From a virus (lineage: Duplodnaviria > Heunggongvirae > Uroviricota > Caudoviricetes), in IMG/VR virus record IMGVR_UViG_2563366956_000015, positions 1 through 35,129 of that record: DNA of 35,129 bases; one strand, given 5' to 3'. The notes below the pieces were generated by a model. It ran no database searches. It was given only the letters and a program-made list of their open reading frames with translations, and had not been told where the DNA came from. The translations under genes were made by a program, and so were the position numbers. Of the stretch, positions 5,234 to 31,999 are shown in pieces; the stretch's first letter is position 1; each line of letters starts with the position of its first letter.

Positions 5234-5623
5234 ATGATTGACGCTCATGACTTCACAAGATGGGTGCGCACACAGGACACCCGTCTGGCTCCCGTTCTTC
5301 AGGGATTATTTGATCTCTACATCCGTGGTCGTGACAACAGAGCACGCACCACAAAACCGGAGAATGCAGACACCCTTTATTTCACAGTAGACGACTGCTA
5401 CCGCGTGGACTTCACACCACACGGGCTGGCGTTGCACTGCCTGACACCACACGGAGAATCACTGCTGGCGTATTACGACTCCCCGGCCTCCGTATTTGCG
5501 GCAATGCTGGCGCATCGCACTGCTGGCGGGTGTGCCTCGCTGAGTGAATACACCGCTGAATTTAACCGCCTTTCTGCCCTCTTCTCGCAGGAGTGGCAGC
5601 GCGTGACGGGATACCAGCCATGA
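5234..5623 (+). CDS. hypothetical early protein immediately upstream of A
   Basis: 129 aa ORF; its stop overlaps the A start (ATGA). Confidence 0.55.
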   Translation: MIDAHDFTRWVRTQDTRLAPVLQGLFDLYIRGRDNRARTTKPENADTLYFTVDDCYRVDFTPHGLALHCLTPHGESLLAYYDSPASVFAAMLAHRTAGGCASLSEYTAEFNRLSALFSQEWQRVTGYQP

Positions 5624-8460
5624 GTGAGTTTGCATGGAGCTGGAATGAACCACGGCCAGCCATTGATCCGGCCAGATTTACGGAGCACAGGCAGGAAACT
5701 GAAACCGACCTGCAACGCGCCATCCGTTACTACCTTGAGGCGGACAAAAGGGCACAGAAAGAACAGGAAGCGAAGGAAGAAGCCTTTTTCGCACAATCCG
5801 CCATGGGTAAAAAACTCATGGCATCCCTTGAGGAAGCCGGACAGCGTGAAAAGCTGGCACAGAGCATCATCAGTAAGCGCCGGGCAACAGAACAAGACCC
5901 GGTAGCCCGTGCCTTTGCCACACTGAAGGCGCTTCCCGTTTATCTGCGAGAACCTCTGAGCCGCCACCTCTCTTTCCTGCGCAAGAAGCAGGAAGCCGAT
6001 CGTCAGAAAGGCAAAAAGAGCTGGCAGGCGGAACGCTATGCACGCGGAACCCTGCGCAAAATATTCGAACGTCTGGACCGTACCGACAGCCGCTGGCTGA
6101 CACCGGGTTATCGCTCCCTTGCCGGACGCGAACGCCTGGACGATTTGCTTTACCTGCCGCAGCTCAACAAACACCAGATACAGACGCTGGCCACCATGAC
6201 GGCGGCGATGTTCAGCAGCACCTTCGAAAAACTCTGCGATGGCTTTGGCGCGACTGATGGTGAACTGACCATGGATGTAACGCTGAAGGCGTATCAGATG
6301 CTGGCCCGCATGGCGTTACACCTGCACGCCATGCCTCCACATTATGACGCACTGACAACAGACAAAGACCGGAGGAACGAACCGGACACGGAGCTGCTGC
6401 CGGGCGCAATCCTTCGCCTGACCTGTGCGGAATGGTGGAAACGCAAACTGTGGCTGTTACGTTGCGAGTGGAGAGAAGAACAACTCCGCGCCGCCTGTCT
6501 GGTTTCCAGAAAAACATCACCCTATCTGAGCCAGGACGCGTTAAGCGAGTTTCGCGCACAGCGCGAGAAAACACGCGATTTCCTGAAAAGTTTCATGCTG
6601 GAAAATGAAGACGGGTTCACGATTGATCTCGAGACGGCGTATTACGCGGGAGTAAGTAACCCGGTTCACCGTAAGGCAGAAATGATGGCCACCATGAAGG
6701 GACTGGAACTTCTGGCCGAAGCCCGTGGCGACAGAGCGGTGTTTCTGACTGTCACCTGCCCGTCAAAATACCACGCAACAACGGAGAACGGTCATCCGAA
6801 CCCCAAATGGAACGGGGCCACCATGCGCGACTCCAGCGATTACCTGGTTAACACGTTTTTTGCGGCGGTCCGCAAAAAACTGAACCGCGACGGTCTGCGC
6901 TGGTATGGCATCCGCACGGTGGAGCCTCACCATGACGGCACCGTGCACTGGCATATGATGGTCTTTGCACATCCGGACGAGATTGAAACCATCGTGTCCC
7001 ACGTCTGCGATATTGCCATTCAGGAAGACCGCCACGAGCTGGGCGATGACATAACTCCGCGTTTTAAGGCGGAGTACGTAGACGGCTCAAAAGGCACACC
7101 AACCAGCTACATCGCCACCTACATCGGAAAGAACCTGGACAGCCGCGCCGTGGATGGCATCGACCCGAAAACGGGCAAGCCACGCGTTGACCACGAAACC
7201 GGAAAATCAATGGCCGAGAGCGTGGAACGCGCCATCGGCTGGGCGCGCCTTCACCGGGTCCGCCAGTTCCAGTTCTTTGGTATCCCCTCCCGTCAGGTGT
7301 GGCGTGAACTGCGCCGCCTTGCCAGCCAGATGGCACGCAACCCGGAAGGCCCGCAACGGCTGAAGGATGACGCAATGGACGCGGTTCTCGCTGCCGCTGA
7401 TGCCGGATGTTTTGCCACCTACATTGAGAAACAGGGTGGCGTACTTGTTCCACGCAAAGACTACCTGATTCGCACCGCCTACGACCTCGCAGATGAGCTG
7501 AACGATTACGGTGAACAGAGCGTACAGATTTACGGGATCTGGTCGCCGCTCATTGGGGAGTCTTCCCGCGTATGCACGCATCCGGATAACTGGAAGCTGG
7601 TAAGACGCAAACCGGAAGCGGAAGACAGCGCCCGCGAAAATGGTTTTGACCTTCAGGGCGGCCCTGCCGCCCCTTGGACTCGTGGCAATAACTGTCCCCG
7701 TGTACAAGAAACGGACAACAACGGGACAGAACAGCCGGAAGAACGGTCAGCACCGTGGCCGCAGCTCCCTGACGGCGTTGAAGTGAACGAATGGATGCGC
7801 TCACTGAAACGGCACGAACGCCGGGCGCTGATGCGTTCGCTTCGTGACAAACAGGCAAAAAACAGCAGTGATGAAATGCAGAGCTGGACACAGAGCCGCA
7901 AACAGCCGCGGCCTTTGCCTGATAACCACGAATTACTCGCTAAAGAATGGCGGGAGTCTGCTGAATCTCTCGGCCTGCATATCGGTGAACAACAGATGCA
8001 GCACCTGTTACGGGGCGGCAGTCTGTACGTTGACGGCAGCATCATTGCACCGCAGGGATTTGAAATTGTACGCAAACCGGATACCCGCCCGGACAGCCGG
8101 ATCACGCAGCTCTGGCAACGCCTGAGCCGTAATCACGGCGTAAGCAGCACGGAGATCCGCCATAACCCGGTCGCCAGCTATCTGGAACAGCTGGGGGCAT
8201 CAGACCCTGAAGCCGCCGCACGCCTGGCATCCACACTTCAGCAGGACCAGAACACCATGAAAACACCCGTTACCGTGCTTTCTGACATGCTGCGCGCCAT
8301 CCGTGACGCAGAGCACGCACAGAGAATCAGTGAAACCACTGAACGCGCCCGCCGCAAAGCAGACCTGCTGCAGGGTGGCCTGACCAGTGGAAACAAAAAA
8401 CAGACAGAAACGGGATTCACAAATCCCGTAAATGAGCAAAAAACGCGCCGCGATATATGA
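5620..8460 (+). CDS. A: rolling-circle replication initiation protein (P2 gpA-like) with a long C-terminal extension
   Basis: VEPHHDGTVHWHMMVF matches the conserved gpA motif as I recall it; start set at the ATG at 5620; position after the early genes. Confidence 0.9.
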   Translation: MSEFAWSWNEPRPAIDPARFTEHRQETETDLQRAIRYYLEADKRAQKEQEAKEEAFFAQSAMGKKLMASLEEAGQREKLAQSIISKRRATEQDPVARAFATLKALPVYLREPLSRHLSFLRKKQEADRQKGKKSWQAERYARGTLRKIFERLDRTDSRWLTPGYRSLAGRERLDDLLYLPQLNKHQIQTLATMTAAMFSSTFEKLCDGFGATDGELTMDVTLKAYQMLARMALHLHAMPPHYDALTTDKDRRNEPDTELLPGAILRLTCAEWWKRKLWLLRCEWREEQLRAACLVSRKTSPYLSQDALSEFRAQREKTRDFLKSFMLENEDGFTIDLETAYYAGVSNPVHRKAEMMATMKGLELLAEARGDRAVFLTVTCPSKYHATTENGHPNPKWNGATMRDSSDYLVNTFFAAVRKKLNRDGLRWYGIRTVEPHHDGTVHWHMMVFAHPDEIETIVSHVCDIAIQEDRHELGDDITPRFKAEYVDGSKGTPTSYIATYIGKNLDSRAVDGIDPKTGKPRVDHETGKSMAESVERAIGWARLHRVRQFQFFGIPSRQVWRELRRLASQMARNPEGPQRLKDDAMDAVLAAADAGCFATYIEKQGGVLVPRKDYLIRTAYDLADELNDYGEQSVQIYGIWSPLIGESSRVCTHPDNWKLVRRKPEAEDSARENGFDLQGGPAAPWTRGNNCPRVQETDNNGTEQPEERSAPWPQLPDGVEVNEWMRSLKRHERRALMRSLRDKQAKNSSDEMQSWTQSRKQPRPLPDNHELLAKEWRESAESLGLHIGEQQMQHLLRGGSLYVDGSIIAPQGFEIVRKPDTRPDSRITQLWQRLSRNHGVSSTEIRHNPVASYLEQLGASDPEAAARLASTLQQDQNTMKTPVTVLSDMLRAIRDAEHAQRISETTERARRKADLLQGGLTSGNKKQTETGFTNPVNEQKTRRDI

Positions 8461-21919: not shown

Positions 21920-22802
21920 CCTGTCGGAACTGCCGACACCACAGATTATTGAAACGCCGGATTTTGAAGTCATCCTGGCGGAAGTGAAAGAAGACATCAT
22001 TACGTCATTTCCACAGACACAGCAGGCTGCCATCCGGTCAGCCATGGCGCTGGAGTCCGAACCGCTCACGGTCATTGCCCAGGCTTTCGCGCTGCGTGAA
22101 CTGCTGCTTCGCCAGCGCATTAATGAGGGCGCAGCGGCCTGTATGCTGAGCCATTCCACAGGTGATGACCTGGACAACCTCGCTGCCAACATGAACACCG
22201 CGCGGCTGGTCATCACACCGGCCACGGACACCACGGAGGCCGTCATGGAAAGCGACTCCGCCCTGCGGCTGCGTGCGCAGTCTGCATTTGATGGCCTCAG
22301 CGTGGCCGGTCCCACCGGGGCGTATGAATATTTTGCCCGCAGTGCCAGCGGTCAGGTGGCGGACGCGCGCGCAACCAGCCCCGCACCGGCGGAAGTGGTG
22401 GTGGCAGTGTTGTCCACAGAAGGCGACGGCACGGCGACCGAAGAACTCCTGACAACGGTCAGAAATGCGCTGAATGCCGAAGACGTTCGCCCGGTCGGTG
22501 ACCGTCTGACGGTGCAGAGCGCAGAAATCATCCGGTATCAGATTGATGCCCGGCTTTACTTTTATCCGGGGCCGGAGTCGGAACCCATCCTGAATGCCGC
22601 CAGAAACAATCTGGAAACCTGGCTTGCCGAACAGGGCAAAATCGGTCGCGATGTCGCGCTCTCCGCCATCATGGCCGCACTGCATGTTCAGGGCGTTCAG
22701 CGCGTGGAACTGACCAGCCCCGCACAGAATATTGTTATCAGTGATGTGCAGTCAGCGTACTGCACATCGTTCACGGTCAGCACAGGGGGAACCAATGAGT
22801 GA
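21906..22802 (+). CDS. J: baseplate protein J
   Basis: 298 aa; synteny. Confidence 0.85.
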   Translation: MPAVDLSELPTPQIIETPDFEVILAEVKEDIITSFPQTQQAAIRSAMALESEPLTVIAQAFALRELLLRQRINEGAAACMLSHSTGDDLDNLAANMNTARLVITPATDTTEAVMESDSALRLRAQSAFDGLSVAGPTGAYEYFARSASGQVADARATSPAPAEVVVAVLSTEGDGTATEELLTTVRNALNAEDVRPVGDRLTVQSAEIIRYQIDARLYFYPGPESEPILNAARNNLETWLAEQGKIGRDVALSAIMAALHVQGVQRVELTSPAQNIVISDVQSAYCTSFTVSTGGTNE

Positions 22803-23571
22803 ACCGTCACTTCTCCCCCCTTCAGCCAGCGATTTCATGCGCTGCGTGGAGCGGGGAACCGCCCGGTTGTCAGCATTACCTGTCAGCCTTAACCAGCTCT
22901 GGGATCCTGACACCTGCCCGGCAGCCCTGCTGCCTTATCTGGCGTGGGCGCTGTCCGTGGACAGGTGGGATCGTGACTGGACGGAAGAAACAAAGCGCCA
23001 GGTGATCCGTGATGCCTGGGCAATCCACCGCCATAAGGGAACCATCAGCGCCATCAGGCGTGTGGTTGAACCCTTTGGCTATGTCATTAACGTGACGGAG
23101 TGGTGGCAGAACGGCGACCCGCGCGGCACGTTCCGCATTGATATTGGCGTGCAGGACGCGGGTATCACAGAGGAAACGTACTCCGAGCTGACACGACTGA
23201 TCGACGATGCCCGTCCGGTCAGCCGCCACCTTGCCTCGCTGAACATTATGCTGGATACGCAGGGAGTCGCACGTGTGTTTTCCGGCATGCACGACGGCAG
23301 TGAAACAACAATCTGGCCAGCCGCTTCTGCCGGTGTTGAGACTGTTTCGGTGTTCCGGGCATCTCCGGCTTTCTTTGACGGCGACATGCTCACCATTTAC
23401 CCGCCGACACCGTCGGTATCTGTCGATGCGGGGATTGTCATGGGATTACAGGTTACGGGCGATGATGCGGTGACCGTGGAGCCACAGGCGGTGATGCAAC
23501 TGACCGCCACAACCGGAACCCTGACAGCATCAGTGGTATTTCTGGAGGATTCTTTGAGGATTTTTTCATGA
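22795..23571 (+). CDS. I: baseplate/tail formation protein I
   Basis: ORF trimmed to the ATG at 22795, overlapping the J stop; synteny. Confidence 0.75.
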   Translation: MSEPSLLPPSASDFMRCVERGTARLSALPVSLNQLWDPDTCPAALLPYLAWALSVDRWDRDWTEETKRQVIRDAWAIHRHKGTISAIRRVVEPFGYVINVTEWWQNGDPRGTFRIDIGVQDAGITEETYSELTRLIDDARPVSRHLASLNIMLDTQGVARVFSGMHDGSETTIWPAASAGVETVSVFRASPAFFDGDMLTIYPPTPSVSVDAGIVMGLQVTGDDAVTVEPQAVMQLTATTGTLTASVVFLEDSLRIFS

Positions 23572-25349
23572 CTGTAAAATATTTTTCTGTTCTGACTGAC
23601 AAGGGTGCCGCCCGTCTGGCAAAGGCGGTGGCCAGCGGCTCGAAAATATCCATCACCACCATGAAACTGGGGGATGGCGGCGGCAGCCTGCCGGAACCGG
23701 AGGCGTCCATGGAAAATCTGGTGAACACGGTATACAGCGCCCCATTGAATCAACTGAGCATCAGCGCGTCTGATGCCAGCCAGCTTATCGCCGAGATGAT
23801 TATCCCGGAAGATAAAGGGGGGTTCTGGATCCGCGAGATTGGGCTTTTTGACAGCGACGGCGTGATGATTGCCGTGGCGAACTGCCCCGAAACCTACAAG
23901 CCTGTACTCACCGAGGGAAGCGGGCGCACGCAGACGATTCGCATGATTGTTGTGGTTTCCAGTGCTTCGTCTGTCGAACTGAAAGTTGATCCCTCTGTCG
24001 TGCTCGCCACCCGCGCCTATGTTGAAGAATATGTTGCGCAGGAAAAGGAGTCTGTACCGCCGCTGCCTGATGTGTGGATACCGTTTAACGATTCACTGGA
24101 TATGCTTACGGGGTTCGCACCGGGCTATAAAAAAATCACCATTGGTGACGATGTGGTTCAGGTTGCCAGTGATAAACAGGTTAGTTTCAGTCGCGCATCA
24201 ACGGCAACCTATATCAATAAATCCGGTGAACTGAAAATAGCTGAAATTAATGAGCCGCGATTTGAACGCGATGGACTGCTTATTGAAGGGCAAAGAACAA
24301 ACTACATGCTCAATTCGGAAACCCCGGTCAACTGGGGCAAGTCGGTAAATATGGATGTTCACGAAACCGGGACGGACAGTTCTGGTTTTACCTATGGAAA
24401 GTTCGTCTGTAACGATTCTCTGATTGGGCAGTCCCTGCCTGTTAACATGGCATCAGTTGCAGTAACCGGAGCCGTCGATGTTTCAGGCGATAATAAGTGC
24501 GTGACGACATCGTGCAGATTTAAAACTGATCTGGAACTCATGTTAAGGATCAGGTTTGAATCTTACGATGGCAACACATCATCTAACCTTGGATATGCCA
24601 TTGTTAATACGCGATCTTTATCAGTTAAAATCACAGGAGGAGCTGCCGACAGGATCACTGCCCGAGTTAACAAAGATGAGGTTACCGGCTGGATTTTTGC
24701 AGAGGCAACGATTCAGGCAATTGATGAGTCCTACATAACATCGGCAATACAATACACTCCGAAAGAAGGTGGTGTCGTTGAATCAGGAGATTATGTTTTC
24801 CTGTCCACCCCTCAGGTTGAAAATGGCCCCTGCGCATCATCATTTATTATATCGGGTGCAACACCAGCAACACGTGCAAGTGATATTGTGACAGTTCCGG
24901 TTAAGAATAATCTTTATAATCCTCCTTTTACTGTTCTTTGTGAGGTACATAAGAACTGGTATAAAACGCCAAATGCAGCACCGCGTGTTCTTAATACCAG
25001 TGGTCATCAAACTGGAGAGGAAATTATTCTTGGACTCGGTCGTTCGACGGATTACGACGGATTTCCTTATTGCGATATAGGCGGGGCTAACATGCGGGTA
25101 AACGAAAACGCATCACTTGAAAAAATGGTTATAGGGATGCGAGTAAAGTCAGATCAGTCTACATGCTCAGTCAGTAACGGACGGTTATCCGGCGAAACAA
25201 AAACCACATGGTCATATATTCAGAACTCCGCAATTATCCGTATTGGAGGGCGAACGAGTACTGGAGAACGACATCTGTTTGGTCACATTCGTAATTTCCG
25301 CATATGGCATAAAGAATTAAATGACAGGCAATTAAGAGAGGCAATATGA
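23568..25349 (+). CDS. H: tail fibre protein H with a divergent AT-rich C-terminal domain
   Basis: N-terminal ITTMKLGDGGGSLPEPEA...GGFWIREIGLFDSDGVMIAVANCPETYKP matches the conserved P2 H N-terminus as recalled; composition becomes AT-rich from about 24100. Confidence 0.85.
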   Translation: MTVKYFSVLTDKGAARLAKAVASGSKISITTMKLGDGGGSLPEPEASMENLVNTVYSAPLNQLSISASDASQLIAEMIIPEDKGGFWIREIGLFDSDGVMIAVANCPETYKPVLTEGSGRTQTIRMIVVVSSASSVELKVDPSVVLATRAYVEEYVAQEKESVPPLPDVWIPFNDSLDMLTGFAPGYKKITIGDDVVQVASDKQVSFSRASTATYINKSGELKIAEINEPRFERDGLLIEGQRTNYMLNSETPVNWGKSVNMDVHETGTDSSGFTYGKFVCNDSLIGQSLPVNMASVAVTGAVDVSGDNKCVTTSCRFKTDLELMLRIRFESYDGNTSSNLGYAIVNTRSLSVKITGGAADRITARVNKDEVTGWIFAEATIQAIDESYITSAIQYTPKEGGVVESGDYVFLSTPQVENGPCASSFIISGATPATRASDIVTVPVKNNLYNPPFTVLCEVHKNWYKTPNAAPRVLNTSGHQTGEEIILGLGRSTDYDGFPYCDIGGANMRVNENASLEKMVIGMRVKSDQSTCSVSNGRLSGETKTTWSYIQNSAIIRIGGRTSTGERHLFGHIRNFRIWHKELNDRQLREAI

Positions 25350-25624
25350 AAGATTTGACTTTGAAGTTTCATGACAAACAGCAGTTTAAAGCCCTCCTGT
25401 CATCTCTTGGCTGGGAGGAAAATGAAGACCTCCAGAACAAACTGTTAGTCGATGAAATTGGTTTCACCTATACAGAAACAGGGGAAAATGAAGAGGGAGA
25501 ACCTGTCTGTATCCGGAATGACGGTTATTTTGTCAACATTCGTATTCTTGATGATACGTTTGATGTTTCTGTGTTCTCTGATTATGTGGTGGAGCTGGAA
25601 GCACCGCTTCGGGAATGGAGCTGA
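25346..25624 (+). CDS. small acidic protein downstream of the tail fibre (possible chaperone, not canonical Tfa)
   Basis: ATGA overlap with the H stop; GAGAGG RBS; 92 aa. Confidence 0.5.
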   Translation: MKDLTLKFHDKQQFKALLSSLGWEENEDLQNKLLVDEIGFTYTETGENEEGEPVCIRNDGYFVNIRILDDTFDVSVFSDYVVELEAPLREWS

Positions 25625-25633
25625 AGGGAGGGA

Positions 25634-25930
25634 GTGATGGATATAACGCCTGTCCTTCATGCACTTTGTGCCGTGGCTGCGCAGGTACTGGCTGGCATTC
25701 TTACGGGAAACTGGGTTTACGGAGCGATAGCCGGTTGCTCGTTCTTCATTGCGCGTGAACACACCCAGGCAGAATATCGCTGGATTGAAAAATTCGGGAA
25801 AGGGAAACGAATTAACATGCCCTGGTGGGGTGGTTTTGATCCGCGCGTGTGGGATGCCGGAAGCCTGATGGATTTTGCTGCACCAGTGGCAATATGCCTG
25901 TTGTTCTGGCTGCTGGTTAGTTACTGGTGA
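25634..25930 (+). CDS. small integral membrane protein (98 aa)
   Basis: Strong AGGGAGGGAG RBS; hydrophobic segments at both ends. Confidence 0.5.
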   Translation: MMDITPVLHALCAVAAQVLAGILTGNWVYGAIAGCSFFIAREHTQAEYRWIEKFGKGKRINMPWWGGFDPRVWDAGSLMDFAAPVAICLLFWLLVSYW

Positions 25931-26020
25931 AATCACGCCACCCCCCCCCGTCATCTGTGTGGGGTGGTGGCGTCAGGTTAAGGGAATGCGATCAACGACG
26001 AAGATTTGTCTTTGATAGTG

Positions 26021-26125
26021 TTCAGTAAGCCCCCCCTGCAGGAGCAGACTGGAGTTTCTCCCACATATCCTCATCACACCATTGAAAGCCTGCAGGAAAC
26101 TCAATTCTTTCAGGCAGCTTCAGAA
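26021..26125 (-). pseudogene. remnant of a tail protein U-like 3' end (direct repeat of the 3' end of the intact U gene)
   Basis: About 100 nt closely matching 27146-27250 in the same orientation; encodes a ...QxCDEDMxExLQSAxAG... fragment on the minus strand. Confidence 0.4.
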
Positions 26126-26289
26126 AATTATAAATTTCACCAGATACAATATGTAAGAGATTAATATGATGCACTCAAGAACATAAAACAGGCAATATTA
26201 ACTCCGGGACTGTATGTGTTAGAAAAAGAAGCACAAAGTAATCTGGTTTCCTCTGAAGGCGATAAAACTGACATAACGAAGCAGGGACC

Positions 26290-26735
26290 TTTCGACCAGA
26301 TAAAATCAAAATGATTTACAACGAAATAATATTATTGTCACCATTACCAGAGAGGCATCAACACTTAATCATGTCGGTTTTAGTGTTGTTAATACTTCTG
26401 ATATTAACGCTAACCAACGTGCTGATGACTCAGGTAACTGGATATTTGATGATGAAAATATTGTTCGTCATGTGCTGCCACCTGAAAAGTGGCAGGCTAA
26501 AGCAGAATGACAACGAAATCCCCTGCTGCCGGAGGCAAAAGAGAGGATCAGAATCTGGCAATCTGAGTTATTGCCCGGCACCATCAGCAATGCAGACAAG
26601 GGAAGGTTGGCTACGTGGATTGAATATATTAGGGAACTTCAGCAGTTGACGTTCACTTCCGTGATGAATAAAGATTGTTATAATGCGCTGGTATGGCCTG
26701 AATCTCCATCAAAGGGGACTTTTCAGAACGCATAA
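26290..26735 (+). pseudogene. degenerate, frameshifted tail fibre assembly (tfa-like) gene remnant
   Basis: Three frames each carry protein-like segments; the C-terminal piece ...ATWIEYIRELQQLTFTSVMNKDCYNALVWPESPS resembles the Tfa C-terminal W..Y...L....WP..P pattern. Confidence 0.4.
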
Positions 26736-26779
26736 TATATTTATAATCCCGCACTGTTCTACACATGCAAACATTCTTT

Positions 26780-26804
26780 GCCCGCCCCGTGCGGGCTTTT
26801 TTTT
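26780..26804 (+). terminator. Rho-independent terminator (GCCCGC-cccgt-GCGGGC plus T8)
   Basis: Perfect 6-bp GC stem followed by eight T; just downstream of the tfa-like remnant. Confidence 0.65.
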
Positions 26805-26967
26805 GCCGCAAAGACACAGTAATAAACGGGATTGTAATCAGAGCAACAAAAACACAAGAAACATTTTCATTAATGATAATGACAATTAAAAATATTGCAT
26901 TGAATGAATACCGTTCAATATAATCCCCCTGCAAGCAGAAAAATTAAATCTTCACACAATGCATGCC

Positions 26968-26990
26968 GCCCTCTTTGTGAGGGCTTTTTT
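26968..26990 (+). terminator. Rho-independent terminator (GCCCTC-tttgt-GAGGGC plus T-run)
   Basis: Perfect 6-bp stem followed by TTTTTT. Confidence 0.6.
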
Positions 26991-27083
26991 ATTTCCCGAA
27001 TATCACCATTGCCTTCATCGGGCGATTTATATATAGTCAGAATGTATTGACAACATTTGCTTCTTTTCCATGAAGGCAATAAG

Positions 27084-27112
27084 GGAGTGCTTTTTACACT
27101 CCCTCTTTTTTT
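27084..27112 (+). terminator. Rho-independent terminator (GGGAGTG hairpin plus T-run), possibly bidirectional at the 3' end of U
   Basis: GGGAGTG-cttttta-CACTCCC followed by TCTTTTTTT; the stop codon of minus-strand U is adjacent. Confidence 0.55.
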
Positions 27113-27114
27113 AT

Positions 27115-27573
27115 TCAGAATGCCGCTATCGCCATTTTGTCTTTAAGCGTGTTCAGTAAATCACCTGCAGAAGCAGACTGAAGCCTCTCCCGCATATCCT
27201 CATCACACCGCTGAAAGCTGATGGAGAACTCAATCTTTTTTGCCTTCCCGTAGCGATCCAGTTCGGAGCGGGTGGTCTGTAATCCCGTAATCACGTACAT
27301 TCCGTAAATCTGCCCCGTACCATCAATCAGCGGCCAGGGACATCCGGTGTAGGCCTGGGTGTTCAGCAGTGTCAGCGACACCTCACCGCCGGTAATTTCC
27401 GGGTACAGCAGACCGGACAGCGTGATCTGGTCGTCACCTGCGCCAATATACTGCCAGGCCGCAGAACGGTTGATTCGCTCATTTTTCACATGCCGCCACG
27501 TTTTGTTTTGTTGAATCTGTTGATGCGGCAGCGTTTTCAGTTCAAACACAAACATGCCAAAAATCATCATCAT
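27115..27573 (-). CDS. U: tail protein U (P2 gpU-like)
   Basis: MMMIFGMFVFELKTLPHQQIQQNKTWRHV resembles the P2 U N-terminus as recalled; follows T on the same strand. Confidence 0.8.
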   Translation of the reverse strand: MMMIFGMFVFELKTLPHQQIQQNKTWRHVKNERINRSAAWQYIGAGDDQITLSGLLYPEITGGEVSLTLLNTQAYTGCPWPLIDGTGQIYGMYVITGLQTTRSELDRYGKAKKIEFSISFQRCDEDMRERLQSASAGDLLNTLKDKMAIAAF

Positions 27574-27586
27574 AATTGCGTCTCCT

Positions 27587-30500
27587 TTAGTCCCTGTCAC
27601 GGAAGCTGTTCATGCCTGTACGCACCTGTCTGCGCATCTCTTCGCGGACAGCCTCGCCAACCAGTTTTGCCAGTTCACGCGGATTCTGCGTGTTGACGTT
27701 GTGCAGATGCACGTGTATCTCACCGGAAAATACCGCAGCCTGCGTTTGTGGCGCGGTTTCTTTTTTGACGGACTCCGGTCGCAGCGGTGGACGGATAACC
27801 TCCGCAACAGGAACAGATAAAGCCACATCTCCACCCGGACTGTTCACAGCCTCACGCACACGCTGAATACCGGCAACCAGCTCTGTATTTGCCTCGTTGT
27901 GCTGCGGCAGCGTGGACACCTGACGGGCCACGCTCACCACTGGCGCAGGAACATTCACTGCTGGCATCAGAACGTTCACCACAGGTGGAGGCGATACCGT
28001 CTCTCCACCCGGACTGTTCACCGCCTCATGCACACGCTGAATACCGGCAACCAGTTCTGTATTTGCCTCGTTGTGCTGCGGCAGCGTGGATACCTGACGC
28101 GCCACACTCACCACTGGCGCAGGAATATTCACGACCGGAACGGGTGAAGCAGTCTGTCTTCCGGTGAGTTTCTGCCAGAGCGTTGTCAGCGCATCCGCCA
28201 GTCCTCCGCCCGCCGATACCGCCTGCACTGTCCGGATAACCTGCGGTGCTTTCCACTCGCCGTGAATGATTTCGGGTCCGGGCAGGTTTTTGAAAACAAT
28301 ATCGCCGGGACCAGTACGTTTTTTGGTTTCCTCAAGCAGCCCGCCGGTGTTGCTGGCGGTTTTCTGTATCCCCTGCCGGAACCATGCCTCATCCAGCGGG
28401 GATTTACTACCGGGTTTGCCGACCGGATTGTCTGACGTTCCCTTCACCTCTCCGGGAACCGCAGGGGCAGGTATTGCGGGTTTATTGTCACCGTTGTTTT
28501 CCGCTGCATCTGATGACCACGACCATGTTTTCTGCACCATTTTTTTCTGTGCAGGATCCCACTCCCACGCAACCGGCGCTTTTTGTGTGGCCTGTTTTGC
28601 GGCGCTCTCCTGGAGTTTTTGCGTCTCCTTCTGCGCTTCCCTGATGCCATCCGGGATAACACCCAGCCACTTCAGCACTGTGCCGAGGCCATCAAGAAGC
28701 AGTGTCAGCGGCCCCAGCACAATGTTCTGAATGACCCACCCCAGCGTTTTCCCGAACGACTCCCCGGCGCTGGTGCATTTGTCGAGTGTCTCTTTTGAGG
28801 CGTTTGCAGGTTCAAGCAGGCGGGTGAACCATTCCCACACGGCTTTGATGCCATCGCCAATCAGCCCGAACACCGGAGCCAGCGACGCAAAGGCTTCCCG
28901 CAGCGGTTGCAGCGCCTCCCACACTCCGGCAAAAAAGCCGGAAAAAAACGCACTGATCTGATCCCAGTATTTCCACACCAGAACCGCGCCGCCCACCAGG
29001 GCGGCAACAATCAGCCCGACCGGGCTGAACAGCGCCCCCAGTGCACCACCCAGTACCGACACCGCCCCCGTGACCAGCCCCCACAGCGCAGGCAGCCCCG
29101 TCAGGCGCAGTGCCATCGCAGACACAAGCCGGACAGCACCACCAATGCCGCCGCCCCCCGTCAGCAGCCCCAGCCCCAGTTGCAGTTTTGCCAGCGGCCC
29201 CGCAATCAGCCCGAGCGTCAGTGACAGCGCACCGAACGTGGAAGACAGCGCCAGAACACTCCCGCCCGCCAGTACCAGCACCCTGACCAGCGCCTGATGC
29301 TCTCCGACCCATTCGCGCATCCGGGTCACCCACGCGCTCACCGTCTGAACCAGCCCGCGCAAATCCTCGGTCACAGTACCGAAGATGTCCGTGCGTAGCC
29401 CTGAGAACGCACCACTCAGCGCCTGAATATCGCCGGAGAGATTACCGCGCAGCGTCTGCCCCATGCGGTCTGCCACGCCGGTGACATCGCCCAGATTGTC
29501 ACGAACATCAGCCAGCGCCCTCAGGAACTGCGGGATCTGGTCAACGGAAAGGTCTTCAACGGGGGTGCCGAATAACGCAATGGCCGTGTTCGCCCGCTCT
29601 GCCGGGTCACGGATGGCCAGCAGTGCACGGGCGGTCACCTGCATCGCCTGGCGTGCGGTACTGCCCCCCTGAGCAATGGCAGCAGACACCCGTTCGGCAT
29701 TCAGGCCGAGTGTCTCATACGCTGAAACACTGGATTTCGACATATCCGAACCACGGATACTGAACTCCTTCACGGCATCGCCGGTTTTGTCCAGCGCAAA
29801 CTTGCCCTGCTTTGCCATCTCAACCAGCAGACTCATTGTCTCGCTGCCGGTGAAGCCCATGTTGCGGAAGTGGGTGGAATACTCATGCAGAATTTCCGGC
29901 AGTTCATCGCGCATTTCAGCGGACATGCGCTGCATCCCTGCCGTCATCAGGTTAGTAGCCTCGTCACTGCTGGCGGCCAGCCCGTTCTTCATCATGATGG
30001 CAGCGGCCTGAATGCTCTGCGGCACATCAACACCAAAGACGGTCCGCATATCCAGCGCACGACGGCTGATGCGCTCCAGTTCCCGGTCGCCGGTGTCGCC
30101 CAGCGCGCCGAGCGTACTGCGTACCGCACTCACAGCCTCCGCAGCACCGGCAAAATCAGCGAGACCGTCAGCCTGTATGTTACGGATGATGTGGGTGTAA
30201 CGTGCGCCATCCTGTGGGGCTTCCCCTGAACCGGCAGCAATGACCGCGCCGTGCTGTTCGGACTCCATCGCCGGAACCATCATGCGCTGCGCCGCATACA
30301 GGCCGCCTGTACCCGCCGCCATCGCCACAGCCCCTGTGTTGCGCAGTTTTTCCGCCTGTGCCTTCGCGGCCTCATAGCGGCTCTGTGCCTGCGTCACGCG
30401 AGCCAGTGCCTGCCGTTCGCGCTCGAGCTGCTCGTTGTACTGCTGTGTACGGCGAACGGCACTTTCGATGGTGCGGCTGCTGCCGGAAAGCAGAATGCCG

Positions 30501-31483: not shown

Positions 31484-31999
31484 TCAGTTCAGGCCAAGTG
31501 CCGAACTCACGCGGTCGCCAAAGACGTTCTGGCCGTCTTTTTTGTAGATGAAGTTCAGCAGGTCGATTTCTGTCACATCGCTGTCATCCACCGACTCCTT
31601 GTAGTAGGTGTTTTTGACGGCGAAGGTGTACTGCGTGGTGTCGCCCTGTTTGGTTTCGCCACGGTCGATTTCCGTGATGCGTCCGCGCATTTCCACCTCA
31701 AGGATCTGACTTTCCTCACCATCGGTGAACAGCTCACCCACAAAGCGCAGCGCCACTTCGTTAATGTCAGTGGCGTATTCCTGGAGCAGCTCTTTTTCAA
31801 CCCCACCGGTGGTGAACGAGGCATCCAGTGCGCCGTCATCCAGTCCGAGGTCAATATGCACCGCACCCAGCATCCCGCCGCCGCGATAGGCTTCGGTTTT
31901 TCGGGTCAGTTTGGGCAGACTGACGCCTGTCACTGTGCCGATTTTGTTTTTGCCGTTCACAAACAGCGTGAACTGGCGAACGTAACGTGGTACAGCCAT
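31484..31999 (-). CDS. FII: tail tube protein (P2 gpFII-like)
   Basis: 171 aa; follows the sheath gene. Confidence 0.85.
   Translation of the reverse strand: MAVPRYVRQFTLFVNGKNKIGTVTGVSLPKLTRKTEAYRGGGMLGAVHIDLGLDDGALDASFTTGGVEKELLQEYATDINEVALRFVGELFTDGEESQILEVEMRGRITEIDRGETKQGDTTQYTFAVKNTYYKESVDDSDVTEIDLLNFIYKKDGQNVFGDRVSSALGLN

Follow-up and report, generated by a model that had tools for sequence, protein, structure and literature searches.

A phage 21-type tail-fibre module with a lectin-like tip, a probable fibre partner gene and a moron-like membrane gene in a P2-like Escherichia coli prophage

In the P2 H–G and lambda Stf–Tfa systems, a conserved N-terminal attachment region of the tail fibre carries an exchangeable distal part, and behind the fibre gene a small gene occupies the chaperone position. 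Horizontal exchange of such P2/lambda-type fibre–chaperone pairs was reportedly described by Haggard-Ljungquist et al. in 1992. The head spike fibre Rcc01080 of the gene transfer agent RcGTA is reported to bind capsule polysaccharide. Close counterparts of the locus analysed here are the phage 21 locus (CPT_21_22, 23 and 24), mEp460, ev017, ev207 and the PhiR phages, which have the same three genes in the same order and with the same spacing. In the T5-like phage IrisVonRoten (BASEL), the 'proximal' lateral tail fibre Gp22 contains a homologous module (58% identity in the middle part and 71% in the tip) followed by a homologue of our 92-aa protein (50%), and module homologues are likewise present in fibres of Drexlerviridae, Queuovirinae, Dhillonvirus and Vequintavirinae. 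These phages are virulent, lack the membrane gene described below and often have a second distal fibre, whereas in our locus the fibre ends in the lectin domain. Another group for comparison consists of small phage genes that lie beside receptor-binding genes and protect the lysogen or change its envelope, including cor (phi80, N15, T1), llp (T5), Z/fun of P2, gtrABC of P22, iap of D3 and Gnarl (PMC12373910).

The DNA analysed (hereafter named the window) is a stretch of 35,129 nucleotides from a P2-like E. coli prophage (IMG/VR record IMGVR_UViG_2563366956_000015). The features of the fibre region are as follows.

23568-25349, plus strand: fibre gene H (593 aa)
23568..24053, plus strand: N-terminal baseplate-attachment domain of H, aa 1-162 (Pfam PF12571), with a backbone-like GC content of 0.55
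24054..24884, plus strand: middle part of the acquired distal module of H, aa 163-439, containing a domain like the GTA head spike fibre (PHROG 1419)
24885..25349, plus strand: C-terminal LamG/galectin-like domain of H, aa 440-593, which varies most and is the likely receptor-binding tip
25346-25624, plus strand: 92-aa acidic cytoplasmic protein (PHROG 1361), a probable fibre-dedicated assembly or accessory factor
25637-25930, plus strand: 97-aa three-helix inner-membrane protein (PHROG 1443), with an ORF also readable from GTG 25634
25931..25979, no strand assigned: GC-rich hairpin without a T-run, directly after the membrane gene (RNAfold -27.1 kcal/mol)
26005..26110, minus strand: second, partial copy of tail gene U (its 3' end), left as a scar of the context from which the cassette came
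26167-26735, plus strand: decayed assembly gene of the tfa/P2 G type, from start codon to stop, with a frameshift and an in-frame stop
26736..27114, no strand assigned: AT-rich spacer (GC 0.37) separating the fibre module from the convergent U and containing three terminator-like hairpins
27115..27600, minus strand: intact tail gene U (Pfam Phage_P2_GpU, 9.1e-40), the right-hand backbone boundary

H belongs to a late cluster of P2 type, in which V, W and the baseplate genes J and I precede it and I matches Tail_P2_I (1.3e-52). A Pfam search assigned residues 1-149 of H to PF12571 (Phage_tail_fib; E 1.1e-56, 191 bits versus a cutoff of 23). H is thus like P2 gpH in having this N-terminal domain above the Pfam gathering score and in its place after J/I; a functional Tfa/gpG gene, however, does not follow it, and the sole Caudo_TAP sequence in the prophage is broken. 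The P2-type N-terminus is joined to an AT-rich distal domain, as the first-pass annotation had proposed. GC content steps from 0.55 in the backbone and H N-terminus to 0.46 (24054-24884) and then 0.42 (24885-25349 plus the 92-aa gene), and megablast matches to lambdoid phages span the window from 24050-24055 to about 25919. From ~24054, H has 76–85% DNA identity to the cassette that encodes the side tail fibre in phage 21, mEp460 and their lambdoid relatives. The start of the matches at 24050-24055 therefore marks a real recombination boundary at H residue ~162 and not compositional drift. The AT-rich character extends over the distal part of H and the 92-aa gene, but not over the membrane gene, whose GC content is 0.52 versus 0.42 for its neighbours.

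In the phage 21-type loci the module is carried on a lambdoid Stf N-terminus (PF08400-type) in a siphovirus, whereas here it is carried on a P2-type H N-terminus in a contractile-tail prophage. A count of matches anywhere in the cassette region, and not of the membrane gene alone, gave 1822 of 5426 complete E. coli genomes (about a third), but the cassette was present on this P2-like backbone in only four of the 5426. Sibling prophages (about 60–70 genomes, ST131 included) have a different fibre at the same place. In one of them, EC08, backbone homology ends at 23235 and restarts at 26608, and the H N-terminus is only 48% identical to ours. Thus the earlier suggestion of a horizontally acquired receptor-binding cassette was strongly supported by the phage 21-type block, its rarity on this backbone and the siblings with another fibre; the same block of fibre tip, 92-aa and 97-aa genes is present in phage 21, mEp460 and the ev and PhiR lambdoid phages. 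Judged from these comparisons, the outer fibre of this P2-like E. coli prophage is one replaced by a tip module common to lambda-, T1-, T5- and P1-like phages. Against three relatives, dN/dS was 0.17–0.34 for every part of the cassette, indicating purifying selection. Such mosaicism is in itself ordinary, textbook material, and it is the 92-aa and membrane families (PHROG 1361 and 1443) that are uncharacterised. Positions 24054-25930 are thus a three-gene block recombined onto the conserved N-terminal attachment domain of a P2-type H, and we consider it fairly probable that this block is a host-recognition cassette consisting of a lectin-tipped fibre, a 92-aa fibre helper and a host-derived membrane moron.

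The distal part of the fibre would run from a short shaft through a β domain like that of the GTA head spike fibre to a C-terminal LamG/galectin-like lectin domain. H matches PHROG 1419 (1.9e-213), and NCBIfam NF048003 (GTA_spike_fiber) covers residues 238-437 above its curated cutoff (47 bits versus 36, E 4e-12). The alignment of H to the solved RcGTA chain (PDB 6tb9) in a phmmer search was weak, and the RcGTA spike, which decorates the head of a gene transfer agent and is no tail fibre, has just one domain in common with H, at low identity. For the tip, the Pfam model Laminin_G_3 (PF13385) matched only residues 537-588 and below threshold (E 0.0015, 19.2 bits versus a cutoff of 27.6), while P1-like homologues have confident precomputed LamG_3 matches. 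The C-terminal domain of IrisVonRoten Gp22, the homologue of the tip mentioned above, has been described as galectin-like (PMC11990801). A profile built from the lectin-domain alignment found no solved structure among PDB sequences, the sole match being a spurious one to a T-cell receptor. The last strand of the domain (RHLFGHIRNFRIWHK in H) keeps the motif GH(I/L/V)RN(F/I/L)R(I/V)W in all nine aligned sequences. The assignment of the tip as lectin-like is based on the sub-threshold Pfam match and the homologues. The tip is the likely receptor-binding part of H and the putative specificity determinant, with a surface glycan as the most likely ligand.

The tip also appears to be exchanged as a unit, even between sibling prophages. 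Compared with the sibling prophage SWHEFF_58, dN is 0.59 in the tip versus 0.02–0.14 in its flanks (0.02 in both the H N-terminus and the 92-aa gene). For the middle part (275 aa), the C-terminal part (154 aa) and the 92-aa protein, in this order, identities are 75, 47 and 90% against phage 21, 76, 78 and 53% against VogelGryff, and 72, 82 and 52% against HannyBb. The lectin domain of phage 21 is thus a different allele from that of the window.

The start codon of the 92-aa ORF overlaps the stop codon of H (ATGA), and the ORF encodes an acidic protein (pI 4.16; 21 D+E versus 8 K+R), which matches the PHROG 1361 profile over positions 1-91 of 92 (3.6e-42). Both it and the membrane ORF were noted at the outset to have strong ribosome-binding sites, and the calculated Shine–Dalgarno duplexes (-7.5 and -11.8 kcal/mol respectively) bear this out. 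The description of the two genes as non-canonical needs qualification: the 92-aa protein is not a P2-type Tfa, but the genes are unusual only relative to P2, belonging as they do to the established PHROG 1361 and 1443. Neither small protein had a match in Pfam, NCBIfam, PADLOC or PDB sequences. In particular, the 92-aa protein did not match PF02413 (Caudo_TAP; lambda Tfa, P2 G, Mu U), had no Tfa-like predicted fold, and showed no likeness to gp38, gp57A or solved chaperones by sequence or fold. It is in this respect, and in the reduction of the real tfa to a pseudogene, that the locus differs from P2 H–G and lambda Stf–Tfa.

Homologues of the 92-aa gene were found in 163 phage records. In all 14 phages compared by coordinates, which include virulent Drexlerviridae, Demerecviridae, Queuovirinae and Dhillonvirus, the homologue lies within 21 nt of the end of the fibre gene or lectin domain; whether a phage is virulent or temperate, the gene accompanies the lectin-tipped fibre. 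Of two lectin-tipped fibres on a P1-like plasmid, each has a separate 92-aa copy behind it, and in phage 21 no tfa gene follows stf. This linkage makes a dedicated fibre assembly or accessory factor the most likely role of the 92-aa protein, most likely a cytoplasmic folding or assembly factor and possibly a transient cap, which would do the job of Tfa (gpG) in canonical P2/lambda fibres. However, the 90% identity of the 92-aa copy to that of phage 21, compared with 47% for the tip, argues against an allele-specific fit between chaperone and client.

That loose co-variation with the tip allele would also fit a generic connector, and we weighed whether the 92-aa protein is built into the virion as a structural component, namely a tip adaptor or cap, a dock for a second fibre (branched or T-shaped), or a mask of the lectin site that is removed at release. 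In several phages a second fibre-like gene comes right after the 92-aa gene (574 aa in IrisVonRoten, 343 aa in HannyBb, 388 aa in VogelGryff and 224 aa in tonn), so that an adaptor or structural role may be considered. The IrisVonRoten homologue of distal H has been modelled as a proximal fibre bearing the T-shaped Gp24 (PMC11990801), in the accessible text of which a role for the small protein is not described, and transient chaperone caps are documented in Alteromonas phages (PMC10579305). On the other hand, no second fibre gene follows in this prophage or in phage 21, and the last fibre of the P1-like plasmid has its own 92-aa copy with nothing to attach. We regard a structural role as unlikely and continue to prefer an assembly factor.

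The region downstream of the cassette bears on this preference. The hairpin at 25931..25979 is a possible end of the transcription unit, as far as the folding prediction goes. The U fragment at 26005..26110 is 80% identical to the U 3' end of EC08 and 87% identical to the window's own U over 55 nt; its translation reads IEFPAGFQWCDEDMWEKLQSAPAGG versus IEFSISFQRCDEDMRERLQSASAGD in intact U. The tfa-like gene had been described as decayed, and this proved correct, since 26167-26735 contains both a frameshift and an in-frame stop and its conceptual translation across them still matches Pfam Caudo_TAP (3.9e-12). EC08 retains only the last ~130 nt of tfa (homology from 26608), and TUM9803 a 70-aa annotated tfa fragment. 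The spacer that follows, with terminator-like sites at 26780-26796, 26968-26984 and 27082-27104, is common to the sibling prophages (87% identity to EC08). The decay of tfa beside the new module is a natural experiment, suggesting that the new fibre works without the classical chaperone; we propose that the resident tfa was left to decay because the 92-aa protein would do its job. As a separate observation on the tail genes, a repeat search found a repeat in the tape-measure gene, where Tandem Repeats Finder was negative.

The membrane ORF announced by the first-pass annotation as 98 aa is present, but its length is most likely 97 aa, with the start at ATG 25637, as in homologues and the RefSeq annotation, and not at GTG 25634. 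The protein matches the PHROG 1443 profile over positions 1-95 of 97 (1.5e-52) and is 79% identical to its phage 21 counterpart. AlphaFold2 predicted three helices (5-24, 27-54 and 75-97; pLDDT 95.8). Across Proteobacteria 23 positions are invariant (motif AREHTQAEYRW...R..MPWWGGFD..W..S..D..P), nearly all of which are polar or aromatic residues placed to one side in the predicted three-helix topology, with all invariant polar residues on one membrane face. By the positive-inside rule, this face is probably cytoplasmic, and the loop 41-74 is predicted to lie in the cytoplasm. The family comprises 463 clusters at 50% identity, and among the 150 listed all members have 66–146 aa. No family with an assigned function was matched in Pfam, NCBIfam, PADLOC or PHROG (GtrA-type models included). 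A literature search on the accessory genes of phage 21 stf, the diagnostic peptide and the name 'Ybl63' returned nothing relevant.

The two small genes had been taken as one accessory pair, and this did not hold. The 92-aa gene follows the lectin-tipped fibre, whereas the membrane gene is tied to the place behind the receptor-binding gene, of whatever type that gene may be. In P22-, lambda-, P1- and P2-like prophages the latter stands behind unrelated receptor-binding genes, its direct upstream neighbour being a P22-type tailspike, a pectate-lyase spike, a GDSL-esterase spike, P1-type fibres, an Aeromonas P2/HP1-type fibre or, in EC08, an unrelated 948-aa tail-collar fibre. The protein is nevertheless 75–83% identical across lambdoid and P22-like phages, and 55–83% identical when phages with unrelated receptor-binding proteins and different hosts are compared. 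Among E. coli phage records with taxonomy checked, intact copies belong to lambdoid, P22-like or phage-plasmid genomes. Virulent phages with the fibre and the 92-aa gene lack the membrane gene in every locus inspected (VogelGryff, IrisVonRoten, tonn and CarlMeissner), and it is a decayed remnant in phage 6947, the sole E. coli siphophage found carrying such a gene, with no integrase in the stretch of that phage examined; this decay suggests that the benefit of the gene is context-dependent. In the P22-like phage Gally the gene follows the tailspike terminator, has an AT-rich leader and forms an independent unit. On this distribution, the membrane gene is best read as a moron-like unit separate from the fibre and 92-aa pair.

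Outside phages, chromosomal copies occur in Aeromonas, where the loci share a neighbourhood, and in sphingomonads. The alphaproteobacterial copies have no conserved neighbours, the apparent clusters being antisense shadow ORFs. Sphingomonads are not known to make classical LPS. Intact copies also occur in Aeromonas jumbo phages, there in head or replication gene contexts.

In our proposal the membrane gene is an independent moron of host origin, which temperate phages carry at the 3' end of receptor-binding cassettes, and its product has a single conserved polar site at one, probably cytoplasmic, membrane interface. Rather than being part of the fibre, this product would act on a conserved component of the envelope or of entry and benefit the lysogen or the infected cell, either by superinfection exclusion at the inner membrane or by remodelling of glycan synthesis. 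The receptor-modifying or exclusion role suggested earlier would fit the moron-like placement and the decay in phage 6947, and a part in exclusion or envelope remodelling is plausible. The gene resembles cor, llp and gtrABC-type genes in its place at the end of a tail or receptor-binding cluster, its small size, its membrane location and its moron-like mobility, but differs from the cor/llp/Gnarl set in having no sequence likeness to it, in not encoding a lipoprotein, in the predicted cytoplasmic site and in following no single type of receptor-binding protein. A surface receptor blocker of the Cor/Llp type is unlikely given the conservation across fibres and hosts, the polar site on the predicted cytoplasmic face and the chromosomal copies; with no lipoprotein signal and a predicted inner-membrane location, this candidate was rejected. 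Relatives among the O-antigen-modifying Gnarl proteins were likewise discarded, as the diagnostic peptides of our protein are absent from the Gnarl supplementary data and from the literature searched. We counted the Aeromonas jumbo-phage copies, the apparent late co-transcription and the sphingomonad chromosomal copies against our explanation of the membrane protein.

A different reading takes the membrane protein as a late lytic-cycle inner-membrane protein, which would tune lysis or egress, or block superinfection or re-adsorption in late infection only. In most contexts the gene is 3–113 nt from an upstream late gene, and in this window no promoter is visible upstream of it and it appears to be co-transcribed with the late genes. 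In one E. coli prophage holin genes come directly after it, in the P1-like plasmid it precedes a 104-aa gene and then LydB, and the jumbo-phage copies are intact. Against this stand the independent unit in Gally, the decayed fragment in phage 6947 and the non-phage chromosomal copies. The protein has no match to a Pfam or PHROG holin family, and the lysis genes are elsewhere in lambda-, P22- and P2-like phages (~8 kb upstream in this prophage); a holin or antiholin as the main reading, resting on the two loci before lydB and before holin genes, was rejected since most contexts are far from lysis genes. We judge a purely lytic role to be decidedly improbable. That the membrane gene is a captured bacterial housekeeping-type gene with no phage-directed function, hitch-hiking as a linker that serves as the right-hand homology arm for module exchange, is most doubtful of all: its DNA is ~80% identical across cassettes with unrelated fibres (window versus EC08), its protein is 75–83% identical in lambdoid and P22-like phages, it is always at the 3' edge of the exchanged block and its Aeromonas chromosomal homologues have a conserved neighbourhood, but a dN/dS of 0.17–0.25 and the 23 invariant residues show selection on the protein and not on the DNA only, and the decay in phage 6947 suggests a context-dependent benefit.

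Returning to the moron, a more far-reaching claim can be put forward only tentatively, and we hold it to be somewhat unlikely in its joint form. The 97-aa family would be a large, unrecognised family of host-derived inner-membrane effectors, with the signature H9, R41-E42-H43, D69 and D80 at one membrane face, placed behind any receptor-binding gene by at least four temperate architectures (lambda-, P22-, P2- and P1-like), and remodelling envelope-glycan synthesis or blocking genome entry of superinfecting phages; the 92-aa protein would represent a new family of chaperones or caps, not related to Tfa, on which lectin-tipped fibres depend. About a third of complete E. coli genomes probably contain a member of the membrane family, a figure that counts matches anywhere in the cassette region.

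Phages, and delivery particles derived from them, are re-targeted mainly through the tips of their tail fibres. The lectin-tipped module is usable on siphovirus, T5-like, P1-like and P2-like chassis, and in engineering the 92-aa partner, present in all of the compared phages, would probably have to be moved along with it. The membrane gene is among the commoner uncharacterised prophage genes of E. coli, and the conservation of its signature is high enough to hint at an enzyme or a specific binding site. Should its product alter the envelope or exclude phages, it would have a bearing on host range in phage therapy and on serotype-related phenotypes.

The window was 99.8% identical to a P2-like prophage in the chromosome of E. 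coli SCU-172, whose insertion site adjoins ihfA and pheT. The late genes V-W-J-I-H lie on the plus strand in that order, and the sheath, tube, tape-measure and U block lies on the minus strand, convergent with H, so that the cassette at 24054-25930 closes the baseplate and fibre operon. The features considered are as follows.

23568-25349, plus strand: fibre gene H, 593 aa
24054-24884: H middle region (residues 163-439)
24885-25349: H tip, the C-terminal domain (residues 440-593)
25346-25624: gene for the 92-aa protein
25637-25930: membrane-protein gene
26005-26110, minus strand: duplicate of the U 3' end, 106 nt
26167-26735: decayed tail-fibre assembly gene (tfa)
26736-27114: spacer, AT-rich (GC 0.37), bearing three hairpins that resemble terminators

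Two further observations concern the prophage at large. At its right end are genes for ParM/ParR-like partition proteins and for a Hok/Gef toxin (L001, the SCU-172 prophage, 5612-6887 and 31646-31786), plasmid-type maintenance functions within an integrated prophage. The minus-strand tape-measure gene contains a 162-nt direct repeat, 86% identical (27797-27958 and 27971-28132), encoding a duplicated segment of ~50 aa (…PAPVVSVARQVSTLPQHNEANTELVAGIQRV.EAVNSPGG…) close to the protein C-terminus.

The first-pass annotation had described a conserved P2-type H N-terminus giving way to an AT-rich distal domain, and this description held. Residues 1-149 matched Pfam Phage_tail_fib (1.1e-56), and the GC content, 0.557 for the backbone and 0.551 for the H N-terminus, fell to 0.458 in the middle region, 0.419 in the tip and 0.423 in the 92-aa gene, with a higher value of 0.524 in the membrane gene. 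Megablast against phage genomes returned 65 records whose matches start at 24050-24055 and stop near 25919, so the composition step is a genuine junction of recombination, placed at H residue ~162. Upstream, baseplate gene I (22795-23571, plus strand) encodes 258 aa compared with 179 aa in the ST131-type sibling prophage, with an unrelated C-terminal extension of ~100 aa beyond 23235 that reaches the H start; PGAP marks it in SCU-172, TUM9803 and SWHEFF_58 as a pseudogene (incomplete), although the frame is open. The H N-terminus is only 48% identical to that of the ST131-type sibling, and the extension and the H N-terminus may have been swapped together.

Residues 238-437 of H matched NCBIfam GTA_spike_fiber (47 bits against a curated cutoff of 36) and aligned weakly with the solved RcGTA head spike fibre. 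The last ~150 residues gave a sub-threshold Laminin_G_3 match, and a C-terminal motif, GH(I/L/V)RN(F/I/L)R(I/V)W, was kept in all nine aligned homologues; P1-like fibres related to H had confident LamG_3 matches. The C-terminus of IrisVonRoten Gp22 has been described as a protruding galectin-like domain that may be an extra receptor-binding domain (BASEL-2 paper, PMC11990801), and this domain is 71% identical to the H tip. Because the match of H itself was sub-threshold and a profile of the domain found no solved relative, a lectin fold of the tip, and hence a glycan receptor, is what we infer by reasoning.

Sequence comparison showed that the cassette is a widely shared three-gene unit. In phage 21 the fibre is stf (gene 22), the 92-aa protein is encoded by gene 23, and the 97-aa protein, annotated 'putative membrane protein', by gene 24; overlaps and spacing are as in the window. 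The cassette was also found in mEp460, ev017, ev207, lambda-ev hybrids and PhiR phages. Of 5426 complete E. coli genomes, 1822 gave a match; the usual annotation is a 'prophage tail fiber N-terminal domain-containing protein' together with two hypothetical proteins, and only four of these genomes had the cassette on the present P2-like backbone. Thus the proposal of a horizontally acquired receptor-binding cassette is well supported. The products belong to PHROG families 1419 (fibre; tail protein), 1361 (92-aa) and 1443 (membrane), the latter two of unknown function.

Identity to the window for three segments: middle (275 aa), tip (C-terminal 154 aa) and 92-aa protein
Phage 21: middle 75%, tip 47%, 92-aa protein 90%
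VogelGryff: middle 76%, tip 78%, 92-aa protein 53%
HannyBb: middle 72%, tip 82%, 92-aa protein 52%
IrisVonRoten: middle 58%, tip 71%, 92-aa protein 50%

Compared with the sibling P2-like prophage SWHEFF_58, dN was 0.018 for the H N-terminus, 0.138 for the middle region, 0.589 for the tip and 0.019 for the 92-aa gene. The cassette is thus itself mosaic: the tip is exchanged as one piece while the flanks on either side are conserved, the pattern expected for the specificity determinant. The dN/dS values of 0.17-0.34 across the cassette indicated purifying selection on all of its parts.

The start codon of the 92-aa ORF and the H stop overlap (ATGA), and the product (pI 4.16) is indeed acidic and preceded by a strong ribosome-binding site (Shine-Dalgarno duplex -7.5 kcal/mol), as first annotated. 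Homologues were detected by tblastn in 163 phage records, and the lectin domain in 205. In all 14 phages comparable between both searches (ev207, VogelGryff, IrisVonRoten, HMD-P4, EC100, AKFV33, tonn, JenP1, KarlJaspers, rolling, C11, HannyBb, 2G7b and PhiR41_1) the small gene starts 0-21 nt past the fibre gene end. Carriers include virulent Drexlerviridae, Demerecviridae and Queuovirinae, along with Dhillonvirus and, more distantly, Vequintavirinae, so the gene serves virion production or infection and not lysogeny. Coliphage-like fibre and 92-aa sequences also occur in records labelled as Campylobacter phages (C11, C13, C14, A116) and Listeria phages (LM 4-11-1, LM 4-14-1), which are probably contaminant or mislabelled assemblies.

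A Leclercia P1-like plasmid (L006, 1892-6288) provides a clear natural case in which every lectin-tipped fibre has a small gene of its own: two LamG-tipped fibres of 700 and 437 aa are each followed by their own 94- or 95-aa homologue, and then by the membrane gene, a 104-aa gene, LydB and DarA-domain genes. In phage 21, no tfa follows stf. The AlphaFold2 model of the 92-aa protein (pLDDT 88.6) has a beta-alpha-alpha-beta-beta fold, for which no match among known folds was found. Taken together, these points mark the 92-aa protein as a dedicated accessory of lectin-tipped fibres, and most probably an assembly factor. An adaptor or cap is a possible alternative, given the loose co-variation of the 92-aa sequence with the tip allele and the second fibre gene often found downstream in other phages.

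The membrane gene followed another rule. In enterobacterial prophages it lies directly 3' of the receptor-binding gene, whatever the type of the latter: P22-type tailspikes (in Gally, and in 611R6 with an O-acetylase and a short tail-fibre fragment between), a pectate-lyase spike (Citrobacter), a GDSL-esterase spike (E. coli) and P1-type fibres; it also stands behind a P2/HP1-type fibre (Aeromonas) and a J-like protein (Comamonas). The decisive case is the ST131-type sibling, where it follows an unrelated 948-aa fibre without the 92-aa gene, and it is absent from the virulent phages with the fibre and 92-aa pair whose loci were compared (VogelGryff, IrisVonRoten, tonn and CarlMeissner). Siphophage 6947 (L091, 2965-3170) retains only an unannotated, frameshifted remnant (…ANIPWWGGFDWRAWDLPSLLD), immediately 3' of the gene for an 859-aa structural protein; by eye, the C-terminus of that protein resembles an S74-type intramolecular chaperone, which makes a tailspike probable. 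In the P22-like phage Gally (L011, 4792-5004) the gene lies past the tailspike's rho-independent terminator, behind an AT-rich leader of ~190 nt with a weak promoter-like site, which suggests an independent transcription unit there. Non-phage chromosomal copies also exist, with conserved neighbours in several Aeromonas species and adjoining ligA, DAHP synthase and similar genes in sphingomonads, and Aeromonas phages carry the gene in other contexts. These varied receptor-binding neighbours, the absence from virulent carriers of the pair and the chromosomal copies mark it as an independent, host-derived moron that travels along the 3' border of cassettes for receptor binding.

The annotated membrane ORF and its strong ribosome-binding site stood, with AAGGGAGGG upstream of the start (duplex -11.8 kcal/mol), although 97 aa from ATG 25637 is likelier than the 98 aa given; a GC-rich hairpin (-27 kcal/mol) lies 3' of the gene. 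AlphaFold2 predicted three helices (5-24, 27-54 and 75-97; pLDDT 95.8). An exhaustive profile search gave 463 clusters at 50% identity, all of 66-146 aa among the 150 matches listed. Alignment of 41 diverse members revealed 23 invariant positions, including D3, H9, Q17, R41-E42, Q45, E47-Y48-R49-W50, R59, W65-G-G-F-D69, W73, S77, D80 and P84. If helices 1 and 2 form a hairpin, almost all of these share the face of the N-terminus, the exceptions being mid- and far-end helix positions such as Q17 and G30. As this face bears seven Lys/Arg residues, the positive-inside rule would place it in the cytoplasm, a topology that differs from the SignalP/TMHMM note in the phage 21 record. Exclusion at the inner membrane, Imm/SieA-like, or interference with envelope-glycan synthesis may be its role; small Gnarl proteins are a precedent for the latter (PMC12373910), and the present protein is not one of them. 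A Cor/Llp-type receptor plug is unlikely given the predicted cytoplasm-facing conserved site.

The report of a decayed tfa-like gene further downstream was confirmed: the gene starts with ATGATGCAC, as many tfa genes do, and a frameshift and an interruption follow; conceptually translated, it matched Caudo_TAP (3.9e-12). Homology to ST131-type siblings breaks off at 23235, within gene I, and returns at 26608, within this remnant. The U duplicate, immediately 3' of the cassette and ~1 kb from intact U, is a recombination scar pointing to another P2-like genome as donor, in which U directly followed the membrane gene. The complete but broken tfa and the spacer are the recipient's. The spacer, 87% conserved in sibling prophages and with no convincing ORF, sits where P2 has its Z/fun hotspot for morons and defence genes, and may harbour a small RNA or what is left of a moron. 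The lectin-tipped module and its two riders would have taken the place of the distal part in an ancestral Tfa-dependent fibre, after which tfa, left without a client, would have decayed.

Mosaic fibres are a classical phenomenon, and the cassette is not new, being already present, unstudied, in phage 21. The interest that remains lies in the two small-protein families, both conserved and uncharacterised, whose linkage rules are clear and contrasting.
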